NCBI GenBank assembly: GCA_963737905.1
Contig: CAVTUQ010000028.1
Location: forward strand, 64,001 to 128,000
Direction of reading: 5' to 3'
DNA: 64,000 nucleotides
Origin: an uncultured delta proteobacterium
Lineage (GTDB): Bacteria; Desulfobacterota; Binatia; UBA9968
The notes beneath the pieces were generated by a model. The model did not search any database. It was not told where the DNA came from and saw only the letters and a list, made by a program, of their open reading frames with translations. Shown in pieces: positions 41,492 through 56,991 of this stretch (positions are counted from its first letter, which is position 1; each line of letters starts with the position of its first letter). Position numbers and translations under genes: made by a program.

Positions 41492-43048
41492 TCAACGCTT
41501 GCCGTTCCGCTGAAAGTGATGGTCTGATGTGTGCAGGGGGGTAAAGATGTGGGCGAATACGTAATCCGCAACCGTCCGCCCCTGGGAAATCCCTTCGCTC
41601 TTGTCGAACGCCCAGTGTATGCCTAGATAGATTCGACTCTGGCCGTTTTCCTCTTCGGCTTCTGACAAAGAATTAAAGCTGCGCGGTTTGAGCGGTCGCA
41701 CGATTCCGTCGGCGCTTTTTGTCTCACCATTGTACTCGTCCGAAACGAACGTGAATGGAATCTCGTCTTTCCCGAAAAATTCTCGCAACACCTGAAACAG
41801 AGCCCCACCGAAGCCCGCGTGCCCCGAAGGGTAAGCGGGAAAAGGCGGAGTGAAATTGGGGCCATTGAGATTGCTGGCCGGAGCGCCGAGCGGACTGAAG
41901 GTTGGATCTCCAATGGTCGCCGGGTTGCCGTCGCCGTTACCCGTCGGGCCGGTACCCGCGTCGGCTTCTCGAATGCCGGTGACCGGTCGCCAAAAATTGT
42001 GGTAATATTTCGATTCCCAAATCGCGATGCCCGCATCGGCCATCGCCGTGTTTATCAGGGCCAGGAGACGGGCAACCTCAATTGTATTCAAGGCCATTTG
42101 GTCGGCGATCTGCACGGCAACTTGGTTATAGAGCCTCGGCGGAGCGCAAAGACTAGGCGTGCCGTCGTAGGCCCAATAGATACCGATCCCGGTCTGTTCG
42201 TCCGTGCGCACGGTGGGCGTGACGATACCGTCGCCTCCCAGTTGCTTGACTTCCTCGAAAGCCGAGGCATACTCCGGACTCTCCAAAGCCGGCGGGGCCG
42301 GAACCCTGAACTGGCTTGCGGATTTCATACTAAACGGTTTGACCTCTGCCCAACGGGCGCCGAGCGCGAGAGGAATCAAACTGATCGGATCCTGGCGCCA
42401 CTCTCCCGGCTCATCGCCTGTTATGAAATCGACGCCGACACGCGGCTCAGCTTGGTCCGAGCCATCGTTCTCGCGCAGCTCTAATATGGCGGCCGCTGCG
42501 CGGTGTCCGACGTCTATCCCGTTGTTCTTGGCATGTCCGTTTGAAATAGACTTCAGGTCCGATGCAAGCTCCGTATCGAAATTCAGCGCCTGCGACGGAA
42601 AAAGAGCACACAACGTGTCGTGGGCTGCCTGGGCGATAGCCGCATTCAGGGAAGTGTCTTTAGGTGCCGGCGAAATTCCGGTGTAACTTCGATATTTGCC
42701 GTTGATCGCGATAACCGCATCGAAAATTGCGATATGGACTATCGCCATCGCCCGGCTCGCGCGCGTTGGCCCGTATTGTTCCCCGAAGACCCGCGTTTCA
42801 CCGATGGCCAAAGGCGTATGATCGAGACCGCTGGCGTCGATCGCGATCCCGTTCCAGCGACGGACGGAGTCCATGCCCGCATCTTGCCGGCGCGGTATCT
42901 TGCTGTCCCCCGGCAGAGCCTTAAAGCGTGGACCCAACGCATCGTGGTGACCGTGGGGGAAACCTTGAGCCCAGAGCGAGGCGCTTGAGCTGAAGATAAA
43001 AGCAGCCACTAATGCAGTCATTAGCCTACAGCAGGGTGTTCTGGCCAT
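41492..43048 (-). CDS. Vanadium-dependent haloperoxidase (PAP2 superfamily), probably secreted
   Basis: KYYHNFWRP (K-x6-RP), PPFPAYPSGH and SRIYLGIHW vanadate-binding motifs; N-terminal signal peptide. Confidence 0.88.
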   Translation of the reverse strand: MARTPCCRLMTALVAAFIFSSSASLWAQGFPHGHHDALGPRFKALPGDSKIPRRQDAGMDSVRRWNGIAIDASGLDHTPLAIGETRVFGEQYGPTRASRAMAIVHIAIFDAVIAINGKYRSYTGISPAPKDTSLNAAIAQAAHDTLCALFPSQALNFDTELASDLKSISNGHAKNNGIDVGHRAAAAILELRENDGSDQAEPRVGVDFITGDEPGEWRQDPISLIPLALGARWAEVKPFSMKSASQFRVPAPPALESPEYASAFEEVKQLGGDGIVTPTVRTDEQTGIGIYWAYDGTPSLCAPPRLYNQVAVQIADQMALNTIEVARLLALINTAMADAGIAIWESKYYHNFWRPVTGIREADAGTGPTGNGDGNPATIGDPTFSPLGAPASNLNGPNFTPPFPAYPSGHAGFGGALFQVLREFFGKDEIPFTFVSDEYNGETKSADGIVRPLKPRSFNSLSEAEEENGQSRIYLGIHWAFDKSEGISQGRTVADYVFAHIFTPLHTSDHHFQRNGKR

Positions 43049-43155
43049 CTATATTCCTCGCTTCTTACTAGCGATTTTCCTTTTGCTTTTCGCGTCGGCA
43101 CAAAGAACTAAACGTGCGGCTTTTCCTGGCAACGAAAATATTCAATTCGATGAGG

Positions 43156-43170
43156 GCAAACCGGATGCCA
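43156..43170 (-). promoter_or_regulatory. Candidate sigma-54 promoter for the haloperoxidase
   Basis: Minus strand TGGCAT-CCGGT-TTGC, about 110 bp upstream of the ATG. Confidence 0.55.
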
Positions 43171-43351
43171 ACCTCCGACAAGTCAAAATTCTCTACGATT
43201 TATTTCCAACGGAACGATCCGATGGAGTTTGTGGACACAGCCTTGTCCTCATCCGTCTATTGACACCGTCTGCGCTCGTTTGTATTGAAGAGCCATAGGC
43301 TTGAATTATAGGAAAGACCGATAAACAATTGTGGCGGCTTGGGGGTGCTCT

Positions 43352-44348
43352 ATGGATCTACAAGGACTGAATCAGTGGTTGGCGGAAAGAAATTTAAAAG
43401 GGCACTGGGACCATCAGCAATGGTCCCAGACGCGTGCAAACGCATTTGTGGAAGGGCAAGGATATTTTTGAAGGCCTTAATCGTGCAGGTGAACTGATCA
43501 CCACCGGAGAGGCGGGCAGGCGCACGATTCAGATGAGAAATCCGGGACTCTCAGCGGGAATGACCAACACGATTCATATCTCGGTGCAATTGGTGAATCC
43601 TGGAGAAATTGCGGCTGCGCATCGCCACACCGCGGCGGCGATCCGTTTCATCCTCAAGGGCAACCCGAAGGCTTACACTGTCGTTCAAGGGGAACGGTTG
43701 CCGATGAGCGAAGGCGATTTACTTACGACACCGAACTGGACCTGGCACGATCACCTCAACGGTGGTGACGAACCGGTTGTCTGGCTTGACGGTCTCGACA
43801 TTCGCCTGGTCGGCACTTTCGGCGCTATGATCCAGGAGAATTTCAAAAAGGACCAGCAACCGATCGAAAAGCCTGACCACTATTCCACGAAGGTCTTCGG
43901 TCAAGCGCGCCCTACCTGGATTAAGAGTGAGTTTGCGGCACCGCCCTATAGATATCCCTGGGCTGAAACCTATGCCAACCTTCTGGCTCTGAAGGAAAGC
44001 GACGGCGATCCCTTTGATGGCATTCTGTTGGAGTATTCAAATCCGCTCACCGGAGGGCCGACGTTACAGACGTTTTCCTGTCAGATTCAGCTTCTTCGTC
44101 CCAAAGAAAAAACCCATTCTCATCGCCATACGAGCACGACGGTATACCACGCGTTCCGCGGCAATGGACTGACGAAGGTATCGGCGAACAATCTAAATTG
44201 GGATCAAGGCGATATTTTTGTCGTGCCGTCTTGGCAATGGCACTCGCACGAGAATAACACCGACGAAGACGCGATTCTTTTCTCGATCACCGATCGCCCG
44301 GCGGCGGAGGCGTTGGGACTTTACCGGGAAGAAGCGGACGGCGCCTAG
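43352..44348 (+). CDS. Gentisate 1,2-dioxygenase-like bicupin, frameshift near 43433
   Basis: RR.I.M.NPGL, AHRHT..AIRF, TPNWTWHDH, WLDGLD, HRHTSTTVY and VPSWQWHSH; N-terminus MDLQGLNQWLAERNLKGHW from ATG 43352. Confidence 0.85.
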
Positions 44349-44375
44349 ATCTAAGACAGCGAAAGGCCGCAGACT

Positions 44376-47300
44376 TTACTTGTCCGAGGTTTTCGAAACG
44401 CTTGGGAAACGCGTCTGTATATATTGCTCGGCGCTTTCCGGCGCGAGCCGTACGCTCCCTGGCCCGCTGCGGACGTAGAACTCTCCCTTGTCTCCCTCCG
44501 CCATTTCTTTGGTCTTCATGAACACTGGTTCGGGACTCCGCTGGCAAGTTACTACGCACACCGTTTTGCCCTTGACTATTTGCATCCGAGGATCGACACA
44601 GGTCCCCGCTCGGTCTCCTAGGGCATTGCGCACCACCTGGCTCAGGTGCAGCATAAACTTGTCCTCGTTTTCGAAAGCATCCACTTCGATCCCGAGAACC
44701 GAGCGGTCATCCGAAACCCCAATGAGAACGTCTCCGCCCTCCGTATTGAGAAAAGCGGCAATCGTCTTGATAACTGCATTTGTGACTGCCGGGTCCTTAC
44801 GGTTCTCCTTCAAGTTCCAGCGCAACGTTGACTTGAATTCCAACGTCTTGGACTCGTGCTGCTTGAGCAGTTCAGCAGCCTGCCGGTGACTCCTGAGATA
44901 GATATCGAACAAAAGGTTCTTGATCGATTCGCCGAACACCCGGTCATCGGTGATCCTTTTGTAGAGATCAAAGTTGGAGTCAACGATCTCCTGGATCACG
45001 TCATCCACCTTCTGATCAAAAGTAAGGCGGACATTCTCACAGGTGTTGACCCGGGCGCTGGCGTCCAATGCCACGTCTTGATCTAGCTTGGTCATCATCT
45101 GACCGAGGGTGGCCCTGTGTTCCTCTCCGAGATGAAGGCCGAAACGCTCGTTTAGCTCTGCAACAATCTGCGAAAGCGGTTCTAGCTCCTCCGCTCCAGG
45201 TCCGTAATGTTCCTTGCTCTTTTGTGGTTGGAGCTGGCCAGCCTGCCGCTCTAGCTTGATCGGACCGCTTGAGGTCTGCTGAATACGGTATGACTCCATG
45301 TCGATTTTCTGCTGGACTTCACGCGGCAACTCGTCAGGATCAACCGGCAGTAGCCGGCGCAGATAGCGACTGAATTGGTAAAGCTTTTCCAAATCGGCAT
45401 CGGCAAAGGTCAGGATCTGCGAGAGGAAGGCGTAAAGCCGTACATAGTCTTTAAGCTGGCCGCGAAAATCGATCTTCTCTTCTTCCGGAAGCTCGTCAAA
45501 TCTTTGCCGAGCCGGTTCCAAAACGGCATAAATTTGATCCTGGCTCGCCTTCGGGTCGAAGTAGACTTTCGCGAAGGCCTCGACATCAGCTTCGACGAAG
45601 ACCTCAAACCCCCTCAAGCGGTTCTGGATTTCGTATAAGAGATTTGGGTCGGTTGCCTCCGATAGAATGGTTGTCTCGTAGTACGGCTCAAACGCTTTGC
45701 GGATTTCTTCGGCGTCATTGGCAAAATCCAGCACCATTGTCTCGGTTTTTTCCGGGTGAGTCCGGTCAAGTCGCGATAGAGTCTGGACGGCGTTCACTCC
45801 GCCCAGCTTCTTGTCGACGTACATCGTGTGCAGCAATGGCTGGTCGAATCCGGTCTGGAACTTGTTAGCCACAATGAGGAACCGATATTCGGGCCGTTCG
45901 AAAACCTTTGCCGTCTGCTTCTCGGAGAAGCCGTTCATGTTCGGCTCCGTATAATCCATGCTCCGGTCGCGGACTGTGCCTGAGAAGGCCGCTAGCGTCT
46001 TCCACGGGTAGTTTTTCTCCCGCAGGTAAGCGTCCAATGCCAGCTTATAGCGTACCGCATGAAGCCGAGAGCGTGTCACGATCATCGCCTTAGCCTTGCC
46101 GTTTATCGCGTGCTGCGATTTATCCACGAAGTGTTCAACCATGATTTTCACTTTTTCGCCGATCGCATGCGGGTGAAGCTCGACAAACGACTTGAGGAGG
46201 TAGGCGGCTTTCGCTCGATCATACTTCGGATCGTCGGCGATCGTCTTTTGCAGTCTCCAGTAAGCTTTGTACGTTGTGTAGTTTTCCAGCACGTCAAGGA
46301 TAAATTTTTCCTCGATTGCCTGACGCATGCTGTAGAGACTGAACGGCTCAAACTTTCCATCGGTCCTTTGACTGCCGAACAACTCCAGGGTCCGAGCTTT
46401 CGGTGTGGCCGTGAAGGCGAAGAAACTCACGTTGGGTAGCCGGCCGCGCTTCTGCATTTCGGCGAGAATCCGATCTTCCAATTCTTCTTCGGGAGTCGCG
46501 GCTTCCGTTTCCTCTTTTTCCGCCTCCTCAAGACTGCCGGACGCAAGAACTGCCTTAAGACCCTTCGTGCTTTCCCCGGACTGCGAAGAGTGCGCCTCGT
46601 CAACGATCACGGCAAAACGCTTCCCCGGAAGCTCGCCGATCTGGTTCACGATCACCGGGAATTTCTGGAGGGTAGTGACGATAATAGTCTTGCCGGACTC
46701 AAGCGCCTCTTTGAGCTGGCGCGAGGTCGTGTCGATATTTTCTACTACGCCAAGAATCTGCTCGAATTGCCGCACGGTCCGTTGAAGCTGACGATCCAAA
46801 ACACGCCGGTCCGTGATGACAACGATCGAGTCGAACACCCGCCGGTCATCCGGATCATGCAGGACGGAAAGCTGGTGGGCGAGCCAAGCAATGGTGAAGC
46901 TCTTGCCGCTTCCCGCCGAATGCTGGATCAGGCAACACTGACCTGCCCCGCGACTGCGCGCGTCGCGGACCATCCCACGAACGGCATCGAGCTGATGATA
47001 ACGCGGGAAGATCAGGGACTTGCGTCCCGTCTTCCTGCCTTTCTCATCCTCATCTTCGACTTCGTGGATAAATTGACGGATAAGATCGAGCGCGCTGTCG
47101 CGTGCCCAGACGCGCTCCCACAGATAGCGGGTCGCGTATCCAGTCTGCGTCGGCGGGACCGGCGGGTTGCCTGCTCCGCCGAATCGCCCTTGGTTAAACG
47201 GTAGAAACCAGCTCTTTTCTCCAAGCAGCTGTGTCGTCACAAAGACTAGATCGGGATCGACGGCAAAGTGGGCGAGGCACCTGCCGTAAGAGAATAGGGG

Positions 47301-47900
47301 CTCGCGCGGGTCTCGAGTTTTCTTGTACTGCCGGACCGCATCCTCAACGTTTTGACCGTTGAGCGGGTTTTTCAGCTCGGCCGTGAAGATCGGAATACCG
47401 TTCAAAAACAAAACCAAGTCTAGGCTTTGCTCGGTTTTTTGGCTGTAACGAAGCTGGCGGACAGCGGTGAAAAGATTCGCCGCGTGCAAGCGCTGGAGGT
47501 CCTCGTTTAGCCCACTCGCGGGCCGGAAGTACGCAAGCTTTAACGAGCAGCCCGAGTCTTTGATCCCGTTTCGCAGCACGTCCAAGGTACCGCGCCGCTC
47601 GATCTCACTCGATAGCCGCCTTAAAAATCTTTCTTTGACCTCGCTGCCATGATGCTGCTTCAGCCGCTCCCAGATTTTTGGCTGCGTGGCGAGGATAAAA
47701 TCAATGGCCATTCCCGGATCGAGGCAAAGCTCTTTGTTGTAGTCCTCAGGTTTTCGCCTCCGGTATCCGCCAGGCGCATTCTCATACCTGTCCAAAGGCT
47801 CAACAGCGAGTCCCTCCCCTCCGGGATAAGCGTCCGGCCCGCCAGCGAGCAAAGTCGCTTCGATGCTTTGCTCCAAACTTCTCTCGGAAATATCAACCAT
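44376..47900 (-). CDS. hsdR: Type I restriction endonuclease subunit R with a C-terminal Schlafen/AlbA_2 domain
   Basis: Nuclease motif DLVLFLNGIPIFTAELKN, Walker A HSAGSGKS, DEAH, FTATP, TGFDQP and QTLSR. The last ~170 aa read ESKTLEFKST...IAAFLNTEGGDVLIGVSDD...FYVRSG. Confidence 0.93.
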   Translation of the reverse strand: MVDISERSLEQSIEATLLAGGPDAYPGGEGLAVEPLDRYENAPGGYRRRKPEDYNKELCLDPGMAIDFILATQPKIWERLKQHHGSEVKERFLRRLSSEIERRGTLDVLRNGIKDSGCSLKLAYFRPASGLNEDLQRLHAANLFTAVRQLRYSQKTEQSLDLVLFLNGIPIFTAELKNPLNGQNVEDAVRQYKKTRDPREPLFSYGRCLAHFAVDPDLVFVTTQLLGEKSWFLPFNQGRFGGAGNPPVPPTQTGYATRYLWERVWARDSALDLIRQFIHEVEDEDEKGRKTGRKSLIFPRYHQLDAVRGMVRDARSRGAGQCCLIQHSAGSGKSFTIAWLAHQLSVLHDPDDRRVFDSIVVITDRRVLDRQLQRTVRQFEQILGVVENIDTTSRQLKEALESGKTIIVTTLQKFPVIVNQIGELPGKRFAVIVDEAHSSQSGESTKGLKAVLASGSLEEAEKEETEAATPEEELEDRILAEMQKRGRLPNVSFFAFTATPKARTLELFGSQRTDGKFEPFSLYSMRQAIEEKFILDVLENYTTYKAYWRLQKTIADDPKYDRAKAAYLLKSFVELHPHAIGEKVKIMVEHFVDKSQHAINGKAKAMIVTRSRLHAVRYKLALDAYLREKNYPWKTLAAFSGTVRDRSMDYTEPNMNGFSEKQTAKVFERPEYRFLIVANKFQTGFDQPLLHTMYVDKKLGGVNAVQTLSRLDRTHPEKTETMVLDFANDAEEIRKAFEPYYETTILSEATDPNLLYEIQNRLRGFEVFVEADVEAFAKVYFDPKASQDQIYAVLEPARQRFDELPEEEKIDFRGQLKDYVRLYAFLSQILTFADADLEKLYQFSRYLRRLLPVDPDELPREVQQKIDMESYRIQQTSSGPIKLERQAGQLQPQKSKEHYGPGAEELEPLSQIVAELNERFGLHLGEEHRATLGQMMTKLDQDVALDASARVNTCENVRLTFDQKVDDVIQEIVDSNFDLYKRITDDRVFGESIKNLLFDIYLRSHRQAAELLKQHESKTLEFKSTLRWNLKENRKDPAVTNAVIKTIAAFLNTEGGDVLIGVSDDRSVLGIEVDAFENEDKFMLHLSQVVRNALGDRAGTCVDPRMQIVKGKTVCVVTCQRSPEPVFMKTKEMAEGDKGEFYVRSGPGSVRLAPESAEQYIQTRFPSVSKTSDK

Positions 47901-47949
47901 CTAATCGTGGCCTTCGTAACTGTCACTGTCCGATGTGATAGATCACCGG

Positions 47950-48144
47950 TCAGTAACGTGGTTTAGGGATTGGCTTGCCTGCCCGGCGCGCTGCTTTAAG
48001 CCACGCAGCTTTGGCGATTTCCACCTCTGCTAGAGTTTTTTCTGGAGTATCACCGAAGGCCGAACAGGCCTCGAGATCCGGAATATCGGCGATGTACCCA
48101 CCGTCCTCGTCGCTGAAAAAAATGTTGATGTGGTAATCCTTCAC
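47950..48144 (-). CDS. HicB-family antitoxin, orphan, with a premature stop near the C-terminus
   Basis: YHINIFFSDEDGGYIADIPDL..CSAFGDT...WL......GKPIPKP; TGA interrupts PRY*PVIY. Confidence 0.8.
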   Translation of the reverse strand: MKDYHINIFFSDEDGGYIADIPDLEACSAFGDTPEKTLAEVEIAKAAWLKAARRAGKPIPKPRY

Positions 48145-48188
48145 GCAAGGTATTGCAGAGGAGATGTGTTGCAGATGATCTCAGGCAA
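48141..48188 (-). pseudogene. N-terminal stub of a DUF3368/PIN toxin
   Basis: A TTG overlapping the UPF0175 stop reads MPEIICNTSPLQYLA*. NTSPL is the typical start of the PIN partner of UPF0175. Confidence 0.6.
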
Positions 48189-48432
48189 GGCGGGTCTCTT
48201 GTCGAAGCTCCTCTTCGCTCAACTTGAAAGTTTCCACTCCATAATCCGCGAGCCTCATCAAAAACACTGTTCTTGGAACTCCCGCAAGCTTCGCCGCCGC
48301 ACCCGAAGACATGCGACCGAGCTCGTATAACTTGACAGCAGCGGCAAAGCGAAGCTCAGCTCCCAGTTGGTCTGGGTTCAGCTTGAGAGCCAAGAGAGTC
48401 TCATCTGGAATCGACAAAATAATTTCGCTCAT
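48181..48432 (-). CDS. UPF0175-family antitoxin
   Basis: AAVKLYELGRMSSGAAAKLAG...F...L..YGV. Confidence 0.85.
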   Translation of the reverse strand: MSEIILSIPDETLLALKLNPDQLGAELRFAAAVKLYELGRMSSGAAAKLAGVPRTVFLMRLADYGVETFKLSEEELRQETRLA

Positions 48433-48593
48433 AACTGTTCCCCGCTGAGACGTATTCTGCCAGAACCACTAAAGATTGTCATGCGCCTTCGCTTAGCCCG
48501 GCCATCTTCATGCCGGTGTCACGATTTGCGTCCTTTTCTCTCCTCTCCGCAGTCGTTTTGACAATCATCTCAATGTTCTGAGCAGTTGCATTG

Positions 48594-48964
48594 CCGGAAA
48601 TGTAGAATGTCCCGTTTTTCAGTCCTCCACGGAGTTGGTCACCGGGATGAACCCCACAAAAGCAGTCCTTGATCCTGTTGACCTTTCGTAACCCGATGAT
48701 AGGTTGGCCTTGCCAGGGCATACGGCACGGGGCCAAGTACCAGGTAAGAGGTTGAAACAACCTGGGGCGTCAGGCCTTGTCCCAGAGAGGACCATTTAAT
48801 AATCGGCCGTCAGGCCGAGCGCCTACCTCCATTGTGCGTATCGACCCTGGCATTTTGTTTTTCGAACTCGCTGAAAAGGCCCTCTCCTGCTTCGCCAGCT
48901 CATTCCGCACGCAGTAAGTTTTGAGCACTGGTATTCCGGAAATGTAGAATGTCCCTTTTTTCAG
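48594..48964. repeat. 29-bp direct repeat pair CCGGAAATGTAGAATGTCCC(G/T)TTTTTCAG at 48594-48622 and 48936-48964
   Basis: 28/29 identical by direct comparison. Confidence 0.9.
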
Positions 48965-49049
48965 CCCCGGCATTCCCGTCACCAAACGTCGGCACTTATT
49001 AATATCTGCCGACATTCATACGCTCCGGGGCAGGATTCAATCTCAGGTT

Positions 49050-49160
49050 CAGGTGGAACGTAGGTGAGCGCCGACATCGCCCCGCACGTCGATTTTGCCG
49101 GTCACGGCAGCAGAGATGAGCGCCGTGGGGAATTTTTTCAGCTTTGATCACTTCACGCGT
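49050..49160 (-). pseudogene. Relic 3' end of a second hsdS allele
   Basis: Encodes TALISAAVTGKIDVR. Bases 49085-49127 match 50864-50906 at 38/43, and all five differences are synonymous. Confidence 0.85.
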
Positions 49161-49178
49161 CGAGAATCTCGTCCCTTT

Positions 49179-50773
49179 TTATTTCCCGCCATCTGGTCTT
49201 AAACGCTCAAACATTTCTCTATCAAATTGGTAGATCATAGAGTCCTTATAGGTTAGGCGGGTTTTTGCTTGAAGGTCTTGAAGTACCTGATGATAATTTT
49301 TGACCTCCATTGATGTGAGCGTTTCTGCGAATGATATTCCAGTCCCGAGATGAGCTTGAAGACACTGAAGTTCCTTCACGGACAAAATCCGCCACGGTAG
49401 CCCTGTTATGTTGTCGCGTTCAAGAAGGAGACGGTTGATATGATCTCGAAAGAATACAGAATTAATCAAATAAAGCGGCTCAAACGTAACAACGACGGAC
49501 TTAATTTCACTACAATGATGAAATCGTTCAAGGCCTGTTGCCTTCTCAATTACAGCTTGCCTGAACTCGTGCAATTGCCTCAAGGCTGCGAGGACTTGCT
49601 TCAGGCTGTAGTCAACCGACTCCTCAGCTCCTGTACTAAGCGCCGTCAGCGAGAAACGAGTTGCCTTGCACTCTATCAGAATAGCTATGGAACCATCCAG
49701 GACGACCCAATCTGGGACTTTGCCTGACGATTCGGGATACCTTTCGCGAATGGAGTGCTCTGATATCAAAGATTCAGAACTCACTGACGCTTCTAAAACT
49801 CGTCCTGTGTATGCTTCAAAAAGATGTCCAAAATATTCAGAAAACTCTGTACGATACCGATTGAACATTTCGTAAAAGATACCCGTTGAAGCTCGATACG
49901 CTATGAGATCGGGCAGCGGCGCAATCATCCTATCGCGCTGCATTGTTTTTGTTGAGTGATGATGCCATGGCCTGAGGATAGGGAAGGTCAAGATAGGGTT
50001 GAAATCGTATATCCGGAATCGGCGGTCTTCTTGTTTCATTTCATCGTATGTCTGTCGAAATCGACGAGGATCTGCACCTATAGAATTGAGTAAAAATGAG
50101 ATCCCCGCATCGTCTGGGAGGTTAATGCCTTGGGTGCGTGCCTTTTCGAAATAACTTCGGGTAATACCGAGTGTGTTTTTTGAGGATGAGGCAGACCATG
50201 CAACGAAACAACCGACCACAAAGTCATGTAAGGATAAGCTGGTTACATTCTCAAAGGCTTTAGAAAACTCAAACTTTGGAACTCCCTTTTTTCTACCGAC
50301 AACCTTAGGAATCTCGCCAAAAAGGAGGAGCGGCTGTCCCATCGAGGCGAACGTATCAACTTCAAATGGGAATTGACCTGCGACCGCACGGAGCATCATG
50401 AATACGGGATTGGACTGGTCAAATTTTTTTGCCACTTCCTCATCAGTAGTAATGGGATCGGCAGTCAGGAAGTCGCAAACCAAGTTATAGAGTTTAGCCA
50501 AATCGGCGAGGGTGACTTGTTTTTTAGGATACGGATCGGGACTGGAATATCTGATGCTAAAGGCAGAAATGCCAGCGGCGACGAAGGGCTGAAAACCACC
50601 GTTGGCGGGGGGAAAAACGGCATGAATTGGTGAGTGTGGGTCCTTGCTCTCCTTAATAGCTCGGTGGGACTTCGAGAAGACACCTTATCAGAAGGAAAAG
50701 ATCGGAATGTAGACCGTAGTTCTTTTTCCAACCGATCCAATTTAACTTCTTTTTGATCACAGGACGAGTCCAT
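49179..50773 (-). CDS. Uncharacterised ~530-aa protein with a C-terminal PD-(D/E)XK (NERD-like) nuclease motif; frame break near 50685
   Basis: GHLFEAY...VPDWVVLDGSIAILIECKA...RQL. The reading frame of ORF 49179-50501 stays open upstream to about 50685 and joins the ATG at 50773. The gene is AT-richer than its flanks. Confidence 0.7.
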
Positions 50774-50842
50774 CGTTCTTTATCCGTTATCCAATGGCTT
50801 TTAAGTATATTTCAGGATGTAGCGTTTTCCTTTTTTTTCAAT

Positions 50843-52239
50843 TTAGAGCGAGTTTTCGTTCCTCACGTCAATCTTGCCGGTCACGGCGGCGGAGATAAGC
50901 GCCGTGCGGTACTCTTTTAGCTTCTCGATTCCTTCGCGGACCTTGGCAATGAGGGCATCGATTGTTGCTGTCTCGTGATCGAGATGATCAATGATCAGCT
51001 TTTGCTCAGTTGTTGGCGGCACGGGTACAAGCACATTTTTCATCGTGTCAGAATAAACCACTTCTATAGTAGTAGCGTCGCTCAACAGAAAGAGTTGAGT
51101 CTGCACTAGTAAACTGTCTTGAACCAGATACTTAATGAATCTAGAAATTAATATAGTTGAATCAGGCCTAATCCGCATCAGACAAGGATGCAAAATACCG
51201 AGCTCAGCGTCCTCTGCTAGAATAAGGCATCTTCCAATTGTTCCGCGAGTGGTAAGCAAAATATCACCAGGTCCGACAGCAAATGCCCGCAACTCATCAT
51301 ACTTCGTCTTCGACACGTAATTTTCACCGATAGTCGAATCTTCATCTATCACGTTTCGCTGATTGTAAACTTTTACTTCGCCGCTGATCATCTCCGATGC
51401 GAGCAGCTGGCTTCCAAACGGGCCAGTTTTAATTGCGCCTGGTTGCCTAACTAAGAGCTTTAGTCGTTGTATCTTCCAATGCGCCGGGATTTCGCCAAGC
51501 CATTCGACGCGGGAATCTTTGATAGGCACGTTTGGGTCGAGGCCTTTTGTGACGGCGTGTGTGATGAGTGCGGCGCGCTTTTCCTGCAGCAACTCGATCA
51601 GCCGCTCTTTCTTCGCCACAAGCGCATCAACCTTCGCCGTCTCCCGATCCAACAAATCAACGATGGAGCATTGCTCATCGAGAGAGGGAATTGGAAAATA
51701 CGAGTTCACAAGCAATTCATGCTCGATACTTTCGACAGTGGCGCCTGCCTTCCGCCATTCGACGAGCAGAGCGTTTTGATGGCCGACGATCAGATACTTC
51801 AGGTAATGAGGGGTTAAACTAGACCTGGGGACGATTGCTTTCATATCCTGGTTCAACGCCACAGCCTTCGTGTTAACAGCCACAGGTATTGAATGCTTCA
51901 GGATTCCTGATCGTACCACAACGAGTACGGCGCCTTTCTGTACAAGCTGTGTCGCGCTGCCTGCCAGACCCTCTTTGGTTATATGATCCTCAGAATCGTT
52001 CACAGCCTCGCTTTTCATGTCATTTGGGTGAAATCCACGGGATATCTCCATTCCAGTATTCCAGTTTCTCCTTCGACGGTGTACCACCTCCGTGAAAACT
52101 GGCGAGGAACTTAATGCGTTTCATCTGCCAATGTTGCGGGGATTGGACCGAGCCACTTGACGCCCGAATCCTTGTAAAAGCGATAGGCTTTCCACCTGCG
52201 AACGGAAATCGGGATTTCAGCTGTAGCTTGAACGTTCAA
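50843..52239 (-). CDS. hsdS: Type I R-M specificity subunit, frameshift near 52022
   Basis: TTG 52239 overlaps the hsdM stop. Repeated conserved region KDSGVKWLGPIPQHW / KDSRVEWLGEIPAHW, GGTPSK and GPFGS TRD starts, P..EQ..I, and ALISAAVTGKIDV. Confidence 0.9.
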
Positions 52240-54297
52240 CCGGCCACCTCGCGGAGCATCTCAAGAATGTCTTTTTCAACACCTTTAATGTCCATCTCTA
52301 TTTCTTCGAGCGGGCGCGGTGGCTGATATTTGTAAAAGTAGCGGTTAAAGTTGATCTCGTAGCCAACTTTGCCGACTTCGTTATCCTTCTCGTCGCGGAT
52401 GGCTGTATTGATCCAGGCGTTAGGTACGTAAGGTTTCACTTCGCGTTCAAAGTAGGACTCGATACTTTCGGAAAGCGGCACGTTTTCGGTGTCGCGAAGC
52501 TCGGGATCGGGTTCCGGATTGTCATCACTGTCGCGGCAGATCTCGGCGGTCTCGTCGCGCTCTGAGAGGGCAGAAAGAATAGCTTTGCGAATCGGGCGCA
52601 TGCGATCTTAAGGCCGACCGCTTTCACTGCCTTGTCCAAGGCGCTCTCGAATGCGGGTCGATCCTTGAATAACGTGCCGGGCAACGTAGCAAAGCATTTT
52701 TCGGATTGCTTCCTGCTCTTTCCTGCCTTCCGCTTCTTCTTTGGCTTTCTCCTTCGCATTTTTCTTCTTGCTCACGGCGAGGTTTCGGAAAGCGGATTCC
52801 TCTTCGAGCCGGGCGATGCGCTCGGGGCTGGCTTGGAAATTCAGCCTGAGCGGACGCTCTACCGTGATCTTGCGGAAGCCGAAGTGTGTCGTTGGGAAGA
52901 TCTTGACGTGAACTCTCCTTCTTTGAAGCCGCGGAGAAGTCGAAAGGATTTGCTCTGCCTTTGTCCGGCGGGATCTCGCGGCGCTTGTCGCCGAGGCTTT
53001 TACGCATCTGCGTCCAGAAGGAAGTGGCATCAATGAGCTGAACCAGTCCTTTACGCTCCGGAGCCTTGCGGTTCGTAAGCACCCAAACGTAGGTGGCAAT
53101 GCCTGTGTTGTAAAAGAGCTGCTCCGGCAGAGCGATGAGCGCTTCAAGCCAATCGTTCTCAAGAATCCAGCGCCGGATTTCGCTCTCACCGCTGCCCGCG
53201 TCGCCGGTGAATAGCGGCGAGCCGTTCATGATGATCGCAACACGGGAGCCGCCTTCATTCGACCGGTTTCATGTGCGCGAGCATGTGTTGGAGAAAGAGG
53301 AGCTGCCCGTCGCTAATGCGCGGCAGTCCCGGCGCCGAAGCGGCCCGAAAAACCACGCTCGTGCTCGGCTTCAACCGCCTCCTGGTCGCGCTTCCAGTCT
53401 TTCCCATAGGGCGGATTGGCGATCTGATAGTCGAACGTGCGCCCCGCGTGGCGGTCATTCGACAGCGTGCTGCCGAACATGAATATTGTCGGCATCGCGA
53501 CCGGTCGGGTCTCTTCATGAAGAGGTCCGACTTGCAGACCGCAAAGGTCTCCGGATTTACTTCCTGGCCGATAAAGATGAATATCTGCGTGTGGATTGAT
53601 CCGCCCCGGTCCGCCGTTCCCAAGGATGTGATCCTTCGTGATCGTGACGCATGCCTCCAGACCCAGAGCACGGATCGCCGACGGTGATCACCGACACCCT
53701 TATGCCGGATGCGATCTTCGTCTCCCGCCAAAAGCAAGTCCACCATGAGATGAACGACATCACGAGGCGTGAAGTGTTCGCCGGGGTTTTCATTGAGGGC
53801 TTCGTTGAACTTCCGGATCAGCTCCTCGAAGATTGTCCCCATCGTCGGGTTATCGACGACATTCGGGTGGAGGTCCACGTTCTTGAAGCGCTCCAAGACC
53901 TGAAACAGCAACCCGGCTTCGTCGAGCTTGCTGATCGTGTTATCGAAATCGAATTTCTCCAAAACTTCTTGCATATTCGGGCTGAAGCCTTGATGTAGTT
54001 CCGCAGGTTTGCGGCGAGATGCGGCGCGTCCGCAAGAAGCTTCTCGAAGTCGTAGCGCGACGTGTTGTAGAAGGCGAAGCCGGAAGCTCTCCGGAGCTGC
54101 GGGTCAAGGTTTTCGAGCTTGCCCTTGAACTTGCCGACGGTTTGAAGAACTTTCTCTTTCGTAGGCGCAAGGACGCAATCGAGACGACGCAGCACGGTAA
54201 GCGGCAGAATGACGTCCTGGTACTTACCGCGTTTAAAGGTGTCGCGAATCAGATCCGCGACGCCCCAAATGAAGCTGACTATCTGGCTATGGTTCAT
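52236..54297 (-). CDS. hsdM: Type I R-M N6-adenine methyltransferase, broken by about 10 frameshifts in this assembly
   Basis: [63 protein letters not shown] and [11 protein letters not shown] occur in order across alternating frames. Confidence 0.9.
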
Positions 54298-54365
54298 GGC
54301 TAAGATACTACGCGATTTGTCGGCCGGCCGGCAAGAACAGTTTTTCACCAGTTCTGGCGAATGGG

Positions 54366-54430
54366 AGGGATCTGAGAAAGATTTCTCCCGGAGTCACGCT
54401 GAGCTTGGCCGAAGGAGTCGAAATGACAAC
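54366..54430. repeat. REP-like palindromic element at the island boundary
   Basis: AGATTTCTC...CTGAGCTTGGCCGAAGG...TCGAAATGACA. A related GTCCTGAGCCCGCCGAAGGAC core lies at about 40750-40772. Confidence 0.35.
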
Positions 54431-54539
54431 ACGCGGTTTTTGCGTCTTTGCGCGAGATGTGTCGACTTTTGATTCCGACTCGCTGCGCTTGGCCCTCCGT
54501 GATGGATGATGGCGATCCTCGATCCTCTATTCTCGATCT

Positions 54540-55945
54540 TCAAGCCAGCTTTACGTGACTTGCCGCGTTTTCTCCCGCGAGAATCCCGGTCACGACAGCC
54601 TGCATCAAGCCGCCCGTGTAACCGCCTCGATATCCGCCCATCAGCCCACCGATGGTGTCTCCGGCAGCGTATAATCCCCTGATAGGTTTGTCGTCGAGAT
54701 TCAGCGCCTGACAGCGCCCACTGACCAGCACGCCCCCCATGGTAAAGGTGATACCGGGCACGACTTTCAAACCGTAATAGGGAGGCCGCAGTGGCTTTGG
54801 CTTTCCCGTTCTCGGCACGGCCAGCGAACCCGCATTACTAGAGTGCACGATGCGATTGTACTGCTCCACTGTTTTAGTCAAATTTGCTGTATCGACTCCA
54901 ATTTTCTGCGCAAGTCCTTCGAGGGCTTCATGACTGAAGATATCGCCCCCATTGTCCATCAACCAGGGATTGGGCGCCGGTGTTTTAACCGATTGGGAGA
55001 AGGCATCGTCCTTCGCCGCGTCCCAGGTCGCAAAATCGAATATAAGCGCCGCGCCCGTCACATCGTTGGTCCGCGCCAGTTCATTTGCCACCGCGACATC
55101 GCCGCGCCCTTCGTCGACGAAGCGTTCGCCATTGGCGTCGATGAGAATGCCTTCGTCGACAAAAGAGTCCAGCCGGGGATAGGGCCAGAAGCGATCGTCC
55201 GTTAGCGCGTTGCGTGCGATCAAGTGGCCGTAGAAATATTGCAGATTGACCGTCTTGGCGCCGACGGCAAGCGCCATGCGCAATCCGTCGCCGGTGTCCT
55301 GCTTGGAACCGCGCAGCTTGCACTGGTCGGCATGGGCGCCGATATATTTCTTGACCAGCTCCGGGTTGGCGCTGAAGCCGCCGGTGGTAAGAATCGTGGC
55401 GCCAGCGCGCAGTCCGATCTCTGCGCCGTTTTGTTTGGCGATTAAGCCGGTAACGCAGCCGTTCTCGACGATGAGCCGCACACCTTCGCTGCCGTTCAAA
55501 TAGCGTTCCGCCGAGATTCAAAAATTGTTTCTCGAGGCTCGTGAGGGCACGGCCACCGACGTCTTTTTTATAGACCGGGCCGTAGGAGATTTCGCTTTTC
55601 TGGTTGAGCCAGATTCTTCCCGGTGCGGTCTCTTCGATCTCGACACCGACAGTCTGTAACCAACTCGATGGCGCGGCCGCAAGTTTCCGACCAGGCTTTG
55701 ACGAGATCGGGGTAGCCAACCCCTTCGGACATGACGAAGTCGTAGAGTTCCTCGGCGCCGGTCTTGGGGCTCTTGCCGCCGGCGCGCAGACTGCCGGAGG
55801 CCATCAAGACATTCCCATCGCCCAGCTCGCCGCGGCTCTTGTCGATCAGAAGAACTTTGGCGCCAGTTTCCGCGGCGCGTACCGCGGCGGTAAATCCGGC
55901 CATCCCAGCGCCCACAACCAGAACATCACATGAAATATCATTCAT
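54540..55945 (-). CDS. FAD-dependent oxidoreductase (fumarate reductase flavoprotein/TcuA-like), frameshifted
   Basis: VVGAGMAG, TTGGFSAN, TGDG, ITFTMGGV and GLYAAGD across ORFs 55568-55945, 55081-55719 and 54540-55499. Confidence 0.85.
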
Positions 55946-55963
55946 GATTTTCCCGTCCGTCAG

Positions 55964-55999
55964 CTTGAACGTTTTGAACGACTTGAACTGCTTGAACGG
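55964..55999. repeat. Tandem 9-mer repeat (YTTGAACNN) x4
   Basis: cttgaacgt tttgaacga cttgaactg cttgaacgg. Confidence 0.75.
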
Positions 56000-56015
56000 C
56001 TTTCGTCCTCGAAAG

Positions 56016-56991
56016 CTACGGAATTTTGTAGCCTAACTCCTTGGCCACTTCCGTCGCCAGTCGGTCATCGGCGACCTCCGTGAAAGACAATCTTGCGGTC
56101 GGTAAATCGGCCCTGTGCTTGGAGCGAGCGGACCAGGTTTTCGATTCCGGCTCGATTGGGAATGCCGGTGGGATTCAAAGTTGTTTGAAACGCATCATAG
56201 GTTTCCGAAGCGGCCTCCTTGTCCATTTTCAAAATCCGACTGATTAACTCCACTGTCTTGGGCTTGGATTTTCGGACCTCGTCCTTGGCGGCCTGCAGCG
56301 CGTAAATAACCCGTTTCACCTCAGCCGGCCTGGATTGAATGGTTTTGATGAGCGAGGTCAAACCCCCTCCCGGCATCTCGACCATCGATCCCACGTCCAT
56401 GATTTTGGTGTACCCCTTTTTTGCCGCGCCGAATGTGACCGGCGGAGATAACAGCGCTGCTTCGACGAAGCCGGATTCAAGGGAGTAAAATACCTGAATC
56501 TGTTGTCCGGGTATTCCCACCATCACATAATCTTTTGGGTTGGCGCCGGACTTCTCTACCGCGATCATCAAAGCAACGTGGTTGGTGCCGCCCGCCCCTC
56601 CCGAAATGGCGATTTTTTTCCCTTTGAGTTCCTGCAGACTTTTGTATTGCGGCGCGGCCTGGAGCCAATACGAAATTCTATCCGACGAAAACCAGATCGC
56701 CCGCGACGGTAAACCACTCAAGGTCGCGGAGACGGAAGCCGGCCCAACACCGGCAACGTAATCGATATCGCCCTGCGCCAGCGCTGCCGCCGCGAGAGAC
56801 GGGCTCATGACGATCAACTCCACGTCAAACCGTTGGCGGTAAACATACCCCAATCCTTCGCTGCCAATAACGGCAAGGCCGTGATCGTAAAGCCGGCATT
56901 GGATATACGAACCTTGGTGCGTCGTTCCTGGGCGTCGGCACTGGTCAAATTCTCTACTGGCCGAGAGTAAAGTGACGAGTAGCTGAATCAA
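56016..56991 (-). CDS. NitT/TauT-family substrate-binding protein, frameshifted; tandem paralog of the next gene
   Basis: QGDIDY.AGVGPASV.ATL.G and VEMPGGGLT; the C-terminus EVAKELGYKIP* ends at 56016 in another frame. Confidence 0.8.

Follow-up and report, generated by a model that had tools for sequence, protein, structure and literature searches.

In a 64,000-nucleotide stretch of the genome of an uncultured delta proteobacterium of the Binatia (assembly GCA_963737905.1, contig CAVTUQ010000028.1, positions 64,001 to 128,000; hereafter the window), we analysed a gene, hsdR-SLFN, whose product P0001 is, as judged from its sequence, a complete type I restriction subunit with a single-lobe Schlafen/AlbA_2 nuclease domain appended directly after the region thought to dock the subunit on its partners. 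The fusion is real, well conserved and widespread among soil bacteria, it is in keeping with a recently published design of defence, and the general link between Schlafen proteins and restriction-modification (R-M) has already been published. By analogy with characterised Schlafens, the appended domain (the tail) is probably a tRNA-directed RNase coupled to the restriction motor or to the state of the restriction complex, which would add translation arrest to restriction.

A restriction subunit with a Schlafen tail

The frame of hsdR-SLFN is open across 1,174 codons without interruption (Table 1). PADLOC matched the product as REase_I (E = 2.5e-40). Pfam placed the nuclease domain HSDR_N (58.8 bits against a cut-off of 25.1) ahead of a superfamily 2 (SF2) motor, in which SWI2_SNF2, ResIII and DEAD cover residues 299–541 and T1R_D3-like covers residues 655–726, all above their cut-offs. 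P0001 showed every Pfam- and motif-based feature of HsdR that we looked for and fell short only of the curated cut-off of NCBIfam TIGR00348 (hsdR), which it matched over residues 98–743 with E = 2e-62 and 211.7 bits against 284.55. In EcoR124I, the C-terminal region of HsdR has been implicated in binding the HsdS–HsdM core (PMC2878639), and by that analogy residues 745–1000 of P0001 would be the part that docks on the HsdM2–HsdS core. D161, E175, K177, K333 and the DEAH box are kept in all 92 full-length fusion homologues, indicating that the tail was added to a working restriction subunit in which nothing was replaced.

The tail was recognised by profile, by fold and by motif. Pfam SLFN_AlbA_2 (PF04326) matched residues 1016–1151 (44448-44855) with E = 3.7e-20 and 73.1 bits against a cut-off of 25.3, spanning profile positions 1–116 of 118, a sequence similarity far beyond chance. 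A profile of 12 tails retrieved pig SLFN11, rat SLFN13 (deposited in the PDB under the name 'Schlafen 8'), SLFN5, SLFN12 and SLFN14 from the PDB by sequence, the best match being the SLFN11 N-domain (E = 6.1e-6). In the profile alignment with pig SLFN11, ESKTLEFK pairs with ESQSIEFK and GGDLLIGVADD with GGSLFIGVDDK, and the Schlafen box of the tail falls on SAFAN...GGSLFIGVDDK.

An AlphaFold2 model of the tail built on a 109-row alignment reached a predicted local distance difference test (pLDDT) score of 94.9 and a predicted template modelling (pTM) score of 0.90; it supersedes an earlier model from 12 rows (pLDDT 70.9, residues 1–35 under 50). The top 36 Foldseek matches of the model in the PDB were all AlbA_2, SLFN or SAMD9 structures. 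VIA-align gave Z = 14.4 to the AlbA_2 domain of DIP2311 (3lmm), 12.0 and 11.7 to the SAMD9 DNA-binding and tRNase domain (12.0 for DNA-bound 7ksp), and 9.2–10.5 to residues ~170–340 of SLFN5, SLFN11, SLFN12, SLFN13 and SLFN14. Lower entries were SLFN12 7eg0 (Z = 8.7) and SLFN14 9jn9 (Z = 6.7), and the next unrelated fold scored 5.3. The model covers one SLFN lobe only (chain ranges ~166–345, to 350 in two entries); residues ~170–340 are the lobe that papers term the catalytic C-lobe.

Within the tail, ESKTLEFKST corresponds to residues 1016–1025, IAAFLNTEGGDVLIGVSDD to residues 1047–1065 and FYVRSG to residues 1141–1146. Across 109 tails, an alignment that takes in tails only 39–50% identical and on non-HsdR partners, E1016 was conserved in 108 and D1064 in 106, and E1021, K1023, N1052, G1055, G1061, D1074, D1080 and R1144 were each conserved in all 109. 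Among the query and its 120 best HsdR fusion matches, E1016, E1021, K1023 and D1064 are kept in 118–120 of 121. Mutation and structure have established the E-x4-(E/D)-x-K centre as catalytic in CbCash, where it comprises E17, D22 and K24 with Mg2+ (PMC13462974), in RorSlfn5, which is inactive as E15A/D20A (PMC13056530), and, according to a preprint, in RzAgo. Apart from the third acidic residue of the metal-binding triad, discussed below, the tail matched what is expected of a Schlafen/AlbA_2 nuclease domain in every Pfam, fold and motif comparison that we ran.

A preliminary description, made from the letters alone, had proposed an uninterrupted HsdR frame running into an in-frame tail, a complete HsdR (D-x13-ELK, Walker A and DEAH) and an AlbA_2/Schlafen core. 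These proposals held: the strings it quoted are all present, the HsdR motifs can be read in P0001 and in its homologues, both of the Pfam families that it named were found (HSDR_N and SLFN_AlbA_2), and the model superposes on the SLFN11/13 N-domain (Z = 9–14 over AlbA_2, SAMD9 and SLFN C-lobes taken together).

Table 1 Features of the hsdR-SLFN locus in window coordinates (res, residues of P0001; aa, amino acids)
Feature	Position	Strand	Basis
hsdR-SLFN fusion gene, P0001, 1174 aa	44376..47900	-	Single open frame; Pfam; PADLOC
PD-(D/E)xK restriction nuclease domain, res 140-223	47232..47483	-	Pfam HSDR_N 8.7e-16
Nuclease motif D161-x13-E175-L-K177	47370-47420	-	Direct reading of translation
SF2 translocase motor, res 299-726	45723..47006	-	Pfam SWI2_SNF2 1.6e-27, ResIII, DEAD, T1R_D3-like
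Walker A AGSGKS, res 329-334	46899-46916	-	Direct reading
DEAH, res 434-437	46590-46601	-	Direct reading
TATP (FTATP)	46401-46415	-	Direct reading
Motif VI QxxxRxxR (QTLSRLDR)	45762-45785	-	Direct reading
C-terminal helical region of HsdR, res 745-1000	44901..45668	-	No Pfam match
Schlafen/AlbA_2 tail, res 1001-1174	44379..44900	-	Pfam, PDB profile search, AlphaFold2 model
Catalytic motif E1016-SKTL-E1021-F-K1023 (E-x4-E-x-K)	44832..44855	-	Direct reading
Schlafen box AAFLN 1048-1052 and GGDVLIGVSDD 1055-1065 with D1064	44706..44759	-	Direct reading
HicB-like small open reading frame	47950-48144	-	Pfam HicB_lk_antitox 1e-4, 22.9 bits, below cut-off 27
UPF0175 small open reading frame	48181-48432	-	Pfam 1.2e-24, 86.2 bits, above cut-off
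440-aa gene between hsdS and hsdR, distant GapS1-family relative	49179..50501	-	NCBIfam NF047931
hsdS, 414 aa, intact	50843..52087	-	Pfam Methylase_S; PADLOC Specificity_I 1.1e-100
hsdM, read in pieces	52236..54348	-	Pfam HsdM_N and N6_Mtase on separate open reading frames

Distribution, selection and portability of the tail

That such fusions might already be present in databases, as the preliminary description supposed, proved correct. A search with residues 1005–1174 of a 90%-identity protein collection (lengths of 645–2,055 amino acids, E ≤ 1e-3) gave 1,502 long-protein matches among 1,960 candidates. The best 120 of these all carry PF04326, in all but one case accompanied by Pfam domains of the HsdR body; several are short and partial, and 92 of the 121 sequences made up of these matches and the query are at least 1,150 amino acids long. 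A scan of species-representative genomes, using a pattern drawn from the tail itself and so biased towards tailed forms, found 19 loci, in 12 of which the tail lies behind an HsdR body or a contig end. The 12 tailed loci come from Gemmatimonadota, Eisenbacteria, Binatia, Acidobacteriota, Methylomirabilales, Myxococcota, Chloroflexia, Anaerolineae and 'Deltaproteobacteria', and the fusion was found in at least nine phylum-level groups. Both parts are read through in one frame in 10 of the 12; in the remaining two, from metagenome-assembled genomes (L009:9959-13293 and L012:10001-13516), the hsdR-Schlafen gene is split by frameshifts, which could be sequencing error or decay. In L012, hsdM and the tail are split as well.

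Counts within single phyla were low. In the window's own phylum, 33 of 401 genomes had a tail-like match, and an open reading frame (ORF) of more than 1,100 amino acids was found only for the window's own; in the phylum of locus L002, a tail at least 64% identical was present in 9 of 301 genomes, six of them in open frames of 1,194–1,266 amino acids. Given these numbers, the fusion is uncommon and scattered, which is what the horizontal movement of R-M genes would lead one to expect.

The independent loci and the database matches rule out an assembly join of two genes as the origin of the fusion. The window's hsdR is also covered piecewise by short-read soil-metagenome contigs that are 90–99% alike (Logan contigs of related soil organisms; no sequencing run shared half or more of the sampled words, the best reaching 0.20), and no indel inside hsdR appeared among 12 of the 39 indel rows against these contigs. 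The ratio of nonsynonymous to synonymous substitution rates (dN/dS) of the tail was 0.16 in comparison with L015 (dS 0.36) and ~0.08 in comparison with L007, similar to the 0.05–0.08 of the HsdR body. Both values place the tail under purifying selection.

HsdRs of this subfamily without a tail were found in L005, L008 and L010 and among plasmid records; they lie in M-S-R operons, are 43–68% identical to P0001 over residues 1 to ~1000 and end at or near the junction. The L005 protein (Rhodothermales; 68% identical) ends ...YLRSHGSEGVK exactly at the body–tail junction; those of L008 and L010 are 45–46% identical, and the best 15 of 1,183 plasmid records stop between query residues 990 and 1051. 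In a quick tree, L005 sits amid tailed sequences with Shimodaira–Hasegawa-like approximate likelihood ratio test (SH-aLRT) support of 92–93, a position suggesting that its tail was lost secondarily. Strongly AT-rich DNA follows the L005 stop (L005:12800-13200), as though an insertion had severed the Schlafen tail.

Searched by itself against 1.84 billion cluster representatives, the tail gave 5,967 matches, 3,467 at 1e-10 and 199 at 1e-30. Its nearest non-HsdR relatives are proteins of ~400–440 amino acids with an unrelated N-terminal part of ~265 amino acids that matched no family, including those of NCBIfam; the relatives of ~430 amino acids share nothing with HsdR beyond the tail. Other partners are SNF2, PLD-like, S1, TPR and HsdR-plus-Peptidase_S24. 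Tails on unrelated partners are 42–52% identical, the pattern of a portable effector, and as far as sequence can tell the tail behaves as a mobile effector module. Among individual proteins, P0177 (1,329 amino acids) is an HsdR-Schlafen fusion with an additional terminal Peptidase_S24 domain, P0160 (2,337 amino acids) has 21 stretches matching the tail, P0216 combines an S1 domain with two Schlafen stretches, and P0243 is an SNF2 helicase carrying the same tail. The sole other AlbA_2 protein of the window's genome is a 481-amino-acid ORF (contig C20:28165-29610; L021:1432-2877) with the N-terminal motif ...GQFLEFLS, a form of E-x4-E-x-K that lacks the Lys; the protein may be a regulator of Schlafen type without catalytic activity.

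The operon and its frameshifted hsdM

On the minus strand, the genes run in the order hsdM, hsdS, a GapS1-family relative, a copy of the hsdS 3′ end, the HicB-like and UPF0175 ORFs, and hsdR-SLFN. Upstream of hsdR, hsdM and/or hsdS are present in L001, L002, L006, L009, L011, L012 and L013, and the window has both upstream and on the strand of hsdR, as do L002, L009, L011 and L012. Relatives keep the M...S-R order, with 1.9–4 kb of other genes between M and S. In L002, L005 and L011, a conserved ORF of ~208 amino acids (...AGLGAFFRP... at its N terminus) and further genes lie between hsdM and hsdS. Extra genes commonly land in type I operons of this HsdR family.

In hsdM, ungapped tblastn with the HsdM of L006 and L009 detected at least nine frame changes, eight of nine being +1. 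Six are single extra bases relative to soil contigs (53258, 53327, 53483, 53513, 53570 and 53649). This copy might accordingly be a relic, in which hsdM is a true pseudogene, HsdR-SLFN an orphan unable to assemble and the tail without a current role; the genome (46 contigs, metagenome-assembled, 87% complete) is overall not riddled with indels, ORFs of at least 300 amino acids covering 63% of it, as such decay of a single gene would have it. Gene decay, however, is usually said to favour deletions. An error of consensus is favoured because the in-frame hsdM pieces remain 74–93% identical to the HsdM of L009 (a range that leaves out short junction fragments and the poorly aligned 52.6–52.8 kb), because the shifts are biased towards +1, because the frameshift patch (52236-55945) runs on into a FAD_binding_2 flavoprotein gene (split into 55568-55945 and 54540-55499), because a second N6_Mtase gene (contig C7:8916-9860; L022, L023 and L025) is also in three frames, and because outside the patch and this second gene the window and the genome read cleanly. 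The most likely cause of the hsdM frameshifts is a stretch of poor consensus, and not decay. With hsdR (3.5 kb) and hsdS both intact and the tail under purifying selection, we consider it unlikely that the locus is a relic.

Between hsdS and hsdR, the 440-amino-acid gene, a distant relative of the antiphage GapS1 family, matched NF047931 with E = 4.4e-27 and 95 bits, below the cut-off of 320, and had no Pfam or PADLOC match. Its G+C content is low (0.47–0.50), and it is bracketed by copies of the hsdS 3′ end of ~68 nucleotides (49077-49144 and 50856-50923) that are 81% identical and 1,779 nucleotides apart, the downstream copy encoding KLKKFPTALISAAVTGKIDVRG. The gene's sequence and setting suggest a defence cassette that was inserted at the conserved 3′ end of hsdS or recombined through it. 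The HicB-like and UPF0175 antitoxin-like ORFs sit directly upstream of hsdR. The interval 47950-49015 on the minus strand also holds two ORFs that match no family, and its small ORFs are possibly a decayed toxin–antitoxin pair. A 32-nucleotide direct repeat lies at 48594-48625 and 48936-48967, and the single bases 48494, 48500, 48643 and 48652 are missing in a related soil contig.

Upstream of hsdM, the segment 54349-54540 has a summed depth of 48–297 in four soil metagenomes, compared with ~5–30 nearby. Loose contig ends fall at 54357, 54394 and 54501, and the high-depth stretch with many ends extends over 54266-54600; the segment has the look of a short dispersed repeat that is common among soil bacteria. 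Two joints, 48955>54468 and 48869>54495, that would represent a locus without hsdM and hsdS were rejected as repeat-driven, as they involve this stretch. A search for tRNA genes across 43000-56500 found none.

Proposed function and relation to known systems

Type I enzymes are classic first-line defences, which phages disarm with DNA mimics and other anti-restriction proteins. To our knowledge, only a few cases (PrrC, PARIS) show in detail how a restriction enzyme that has been disarmed or overwhelmed is backed up. A conserved Schlafen tail behind the helical region, taken together with the literature on HsdR docking and on Schlafen tRNases, leads us to propose a tRNase whose activity would depend on the state of the enzyme. 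As in RorSlfn5, CbCash and RzAgo, the tail would be a metal-dependent endoribonuclease that cuts tRNA. It would be inactive in the resting R2M2S1 enzyme and would be switched on when the restriction complex changes state, candidate triggers being a translocating motor that stalls or collides on foreign DNA, or anti-restriction proteins that release or inhibit HsdR. The outcome would be translation arrest, a second layer of defence beside DNA cleavage.

Prokaryotic Schlafen tRNases are described as being kept off until a fused sensor shifts their oligomeric arrangement (PMC13056530, PMC13462974). More tentatively, the restriction motor itself might be the infection sensor, and the tail at the docking region might become a tRNase when HsdR changes state. 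Two motors translocating on unmodified DNA could stall or collide and so unite two tails; alternatively, anti-restriction proteins could displace or freeze HsdR.

Several points weigh against the proposal that the tail is a tRNase controlled by the restriction complex. That the substrate is tRNA, that the motor regulates the tail and that the outcome is abortive or a backup is what we infer, and for substrate and trigger the relatives concerned are only 15–26% identical; we found no assay of any HsdR-Schlafen fusion in the literature. Restriction itself can do without the tail, given the tail-less HsdRs of the subfamily, and a genuine break in hsdM would prevent the local enzyme from assembling. 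There are AlbA_2/SLFN domains that do no more than bind nucleic acid, and SLFN5 and the SAMD9 DNA-binding domain are among our matches. The characterised prokaryotic Schlafens need oligomers for a working site (PMC13462974, PMC13056530). Finally, D1064 pairs with the second, not the first, Asp of GVDD in pig SLFN11 in the HMMER alignment, so that the identity of the third acidic residue is uncertain by one position. The known catalytic residues are E209, E214 and D252 in SLFN11 and E205, E210 and D248 in SLFN13, and PDB titles among the matches name SLFN11 E209A and schlafen14-E211A. The preliminary description had held that two Glu and one Asp of the Schlafen site look retained; this stands for E1016, E1021 and D1064 as residues of the tail, which are also conserved among homologous fusions, but the equation of D1064 with the SLFN11 Asp may be off by one.

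The tail might also be an active nuclease that acts on something other than tRNA, such as single-stranded DNA, R-loops or phage transcripts, and aids restriction without arresting the host. The catalytic motif is conserved, yet sequence does not reveal the substrate; the title of the SLFN5 N-domain entry in the PDB mentions single-stranded RNA cleavage and DNA binding, and Weickert et al. speculate that R-M-linked Schlafens sense structures of DNA cleavage (PMC13462974). Against this, all three prokaryotic Schlafens assayed so far cut tRNA (PMC13462974, PMC13056530), and HsdR already owns a conserved DNA nuclease, which makes such a target improbable. We give least credence to the tail being a non-catalytic nucleic-acid-binding or regulatory module (a DNA or RNA clamp, or a complex-assembly domain): automatic NCBI names ('putative DNA binding domain-containing protein', 'RNA-binding domain-containing protein'), structural neighbours that include DNA-bound SAMD9 (7ksp, Z = 12.0) and SLFN5 'DNA/RNA binding protein' entries, and a position behind the part of HsdR believed to dock on the methylase core (PMC2878639) would fit it, but E1016, E1021 and K1023, which pure binding would not need, are kept in 108–109 of 109 tails across unrelated partners, their equivalents are essential for RNase activity in CbCash and RorSlfn5 (PMC13462974, PMC13056530), and nuclease-dead Schlafens are described as being without the catalytic residues (PMC13462974).

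If the tail were only a binding module, the finding would be an ordinary one. With a backup RNase joined to the restriction motor, a family of more than 1,000 database members would be a simple and genetically tractable model, in which one gene and three point mutations would suffice to dissect the coupling between DNA sensing and translation shut-off. Were the motor the sensor, one polypeptide would combine DNA restriction and abortive infection.

In the main texts that we searched, no description of an HsdR-Schlafen fusion was found; supplementary architecture tables may list it. One candidate for a prior report, 10.1101/776245, has HsdR and Schlafen in unrelated contexts, and in PMC10561277 AlbA_2 is a nucleoid protein. 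The preliminary description knew of no functional account of such fusions. This holds for main texts, but the general idea of Schlafens as backup effectors is in print (PMC13056530, PMC13462974, PMC12839542), the last of these proposing Schlafen RNases as backup suicidal effectors in BREX loci. Because fused or R-M- and BREX-linked Schlafen backups have been put forward there, the fusion is less novel than had been implied.

The closest published systems are the pSlfn proteins (RorSlfn5, DUF262-Slfn), in which a single-lobe SLFN_AlbA_2 domain with the E-x4-(E/D)-x-K motif is likewise fused to another domain (PMC13056530; 10.1101/2025.07.24.666596). Theirs are tRNase effectors in defence islands with a presumed infection-sensing fused domain (PMC13056530), whereas the partner here is a whole restriction subunit, nuclease and motor, and the Schlafen domain is C-terminal. 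The partners given in the main text are histidine-kinase, helix-turn-helix, DUF5929, Ig-like, DUF262 and TBP-like domains, HsdR not being named among them; the paper tabulates 55 architectures in its supplement (PMC13056530). Cash and the R-M-linked Schlafen clusters share the E-D/E-K centre and the role of a second-line effector of DNA- or RNA-targeting immunity, and differ in that Cash is turned on through Csx15 by cyclic tetra-adenylate (cA4) and forms filaments (PMC13462974). The same work reports a link to R-M or other nucleases for more than 50% of the prokaryotic Schlafens associated with defence, and cluster 3 contains direct fusions to R-M methyltransferases. The fusions named in the text of this paper by Weickert et al. 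involve methyltransferases, ATPases and uncharacterised C-terminal domains, and HsdR is not named there (PMC13462974).

Other systems attach a Schlafen to a guided or sequence-specific defence enzyme, as in SLFN-pAgo (RzAgo), where recognition of target DNA licenses tRNA cleavage, and in the Poribacteria, where a Schlafen–ATPase module (Schlatpase) is fused to HsdS, a precedent for a Schlafen held covalently on a type I R-M subunit (10.64898/2026.05.29.728809). In those systems the Schlafen domain is paired with a GHKL ATPase (Schlatpase) and carried by the specificity subunit or by Argonaute, whereas the tail described here lacks a GHKL ATPase and is carried by the motor subunit.

PrrC with EcoprrI likewise ties a tRNA-cutting effector to a type I enzyme, an activity that in P0001 is predicted. 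PrrC stands as a protein of its own, built from an ABC-type ATPase and a nuclease domain of another kind, and the prr genes are ordered M-S-prrC-R, resembling the local M-S-[GapS1-like]-R. Here the link is covalent and no activating peptide is known. None of the six Pfam families in P0001 is of PrrC type, which rules out homology with PrrC. The likeness is functional only, since P0001 is without PrrC domains, and the PrrC-like guard logic of the preliminary description may apply in that sense.

Mammalian SLFN11 (7zel and 7zep, Z = 9.2–9.9) also combines a Schlafen RNase with a DNA-reading, helicase-type motor in one chain. The tail model aligns to its residues ~188–329 or 327, and the first catalytic Glu of the tail corresponds to the residue mutated in the E209A structure. 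SLFN11 has a two-lobed N-terminal Schlafen core and a C-terminal superfamily 1 helicase, whereas P0001 has one lobe placed after an SF2 translocase with a DNA nuclease; its single lobe, SF2 motor and reversed order rule it out as an SLFN11-type (group III) protein, although it may yet act in the manner of both PrrC and SLFN11. Active tails of this kind would extend the parallel between bacterial and human Schlafen immunity to the motor-plus-Schlafen design. If, in addition, the motor served as the sensor, P0001 would be a bacterial counterpart of SLFN11, in which a DNA-reading helicase licenses a Schlafen tRNase, with the domains reversed.

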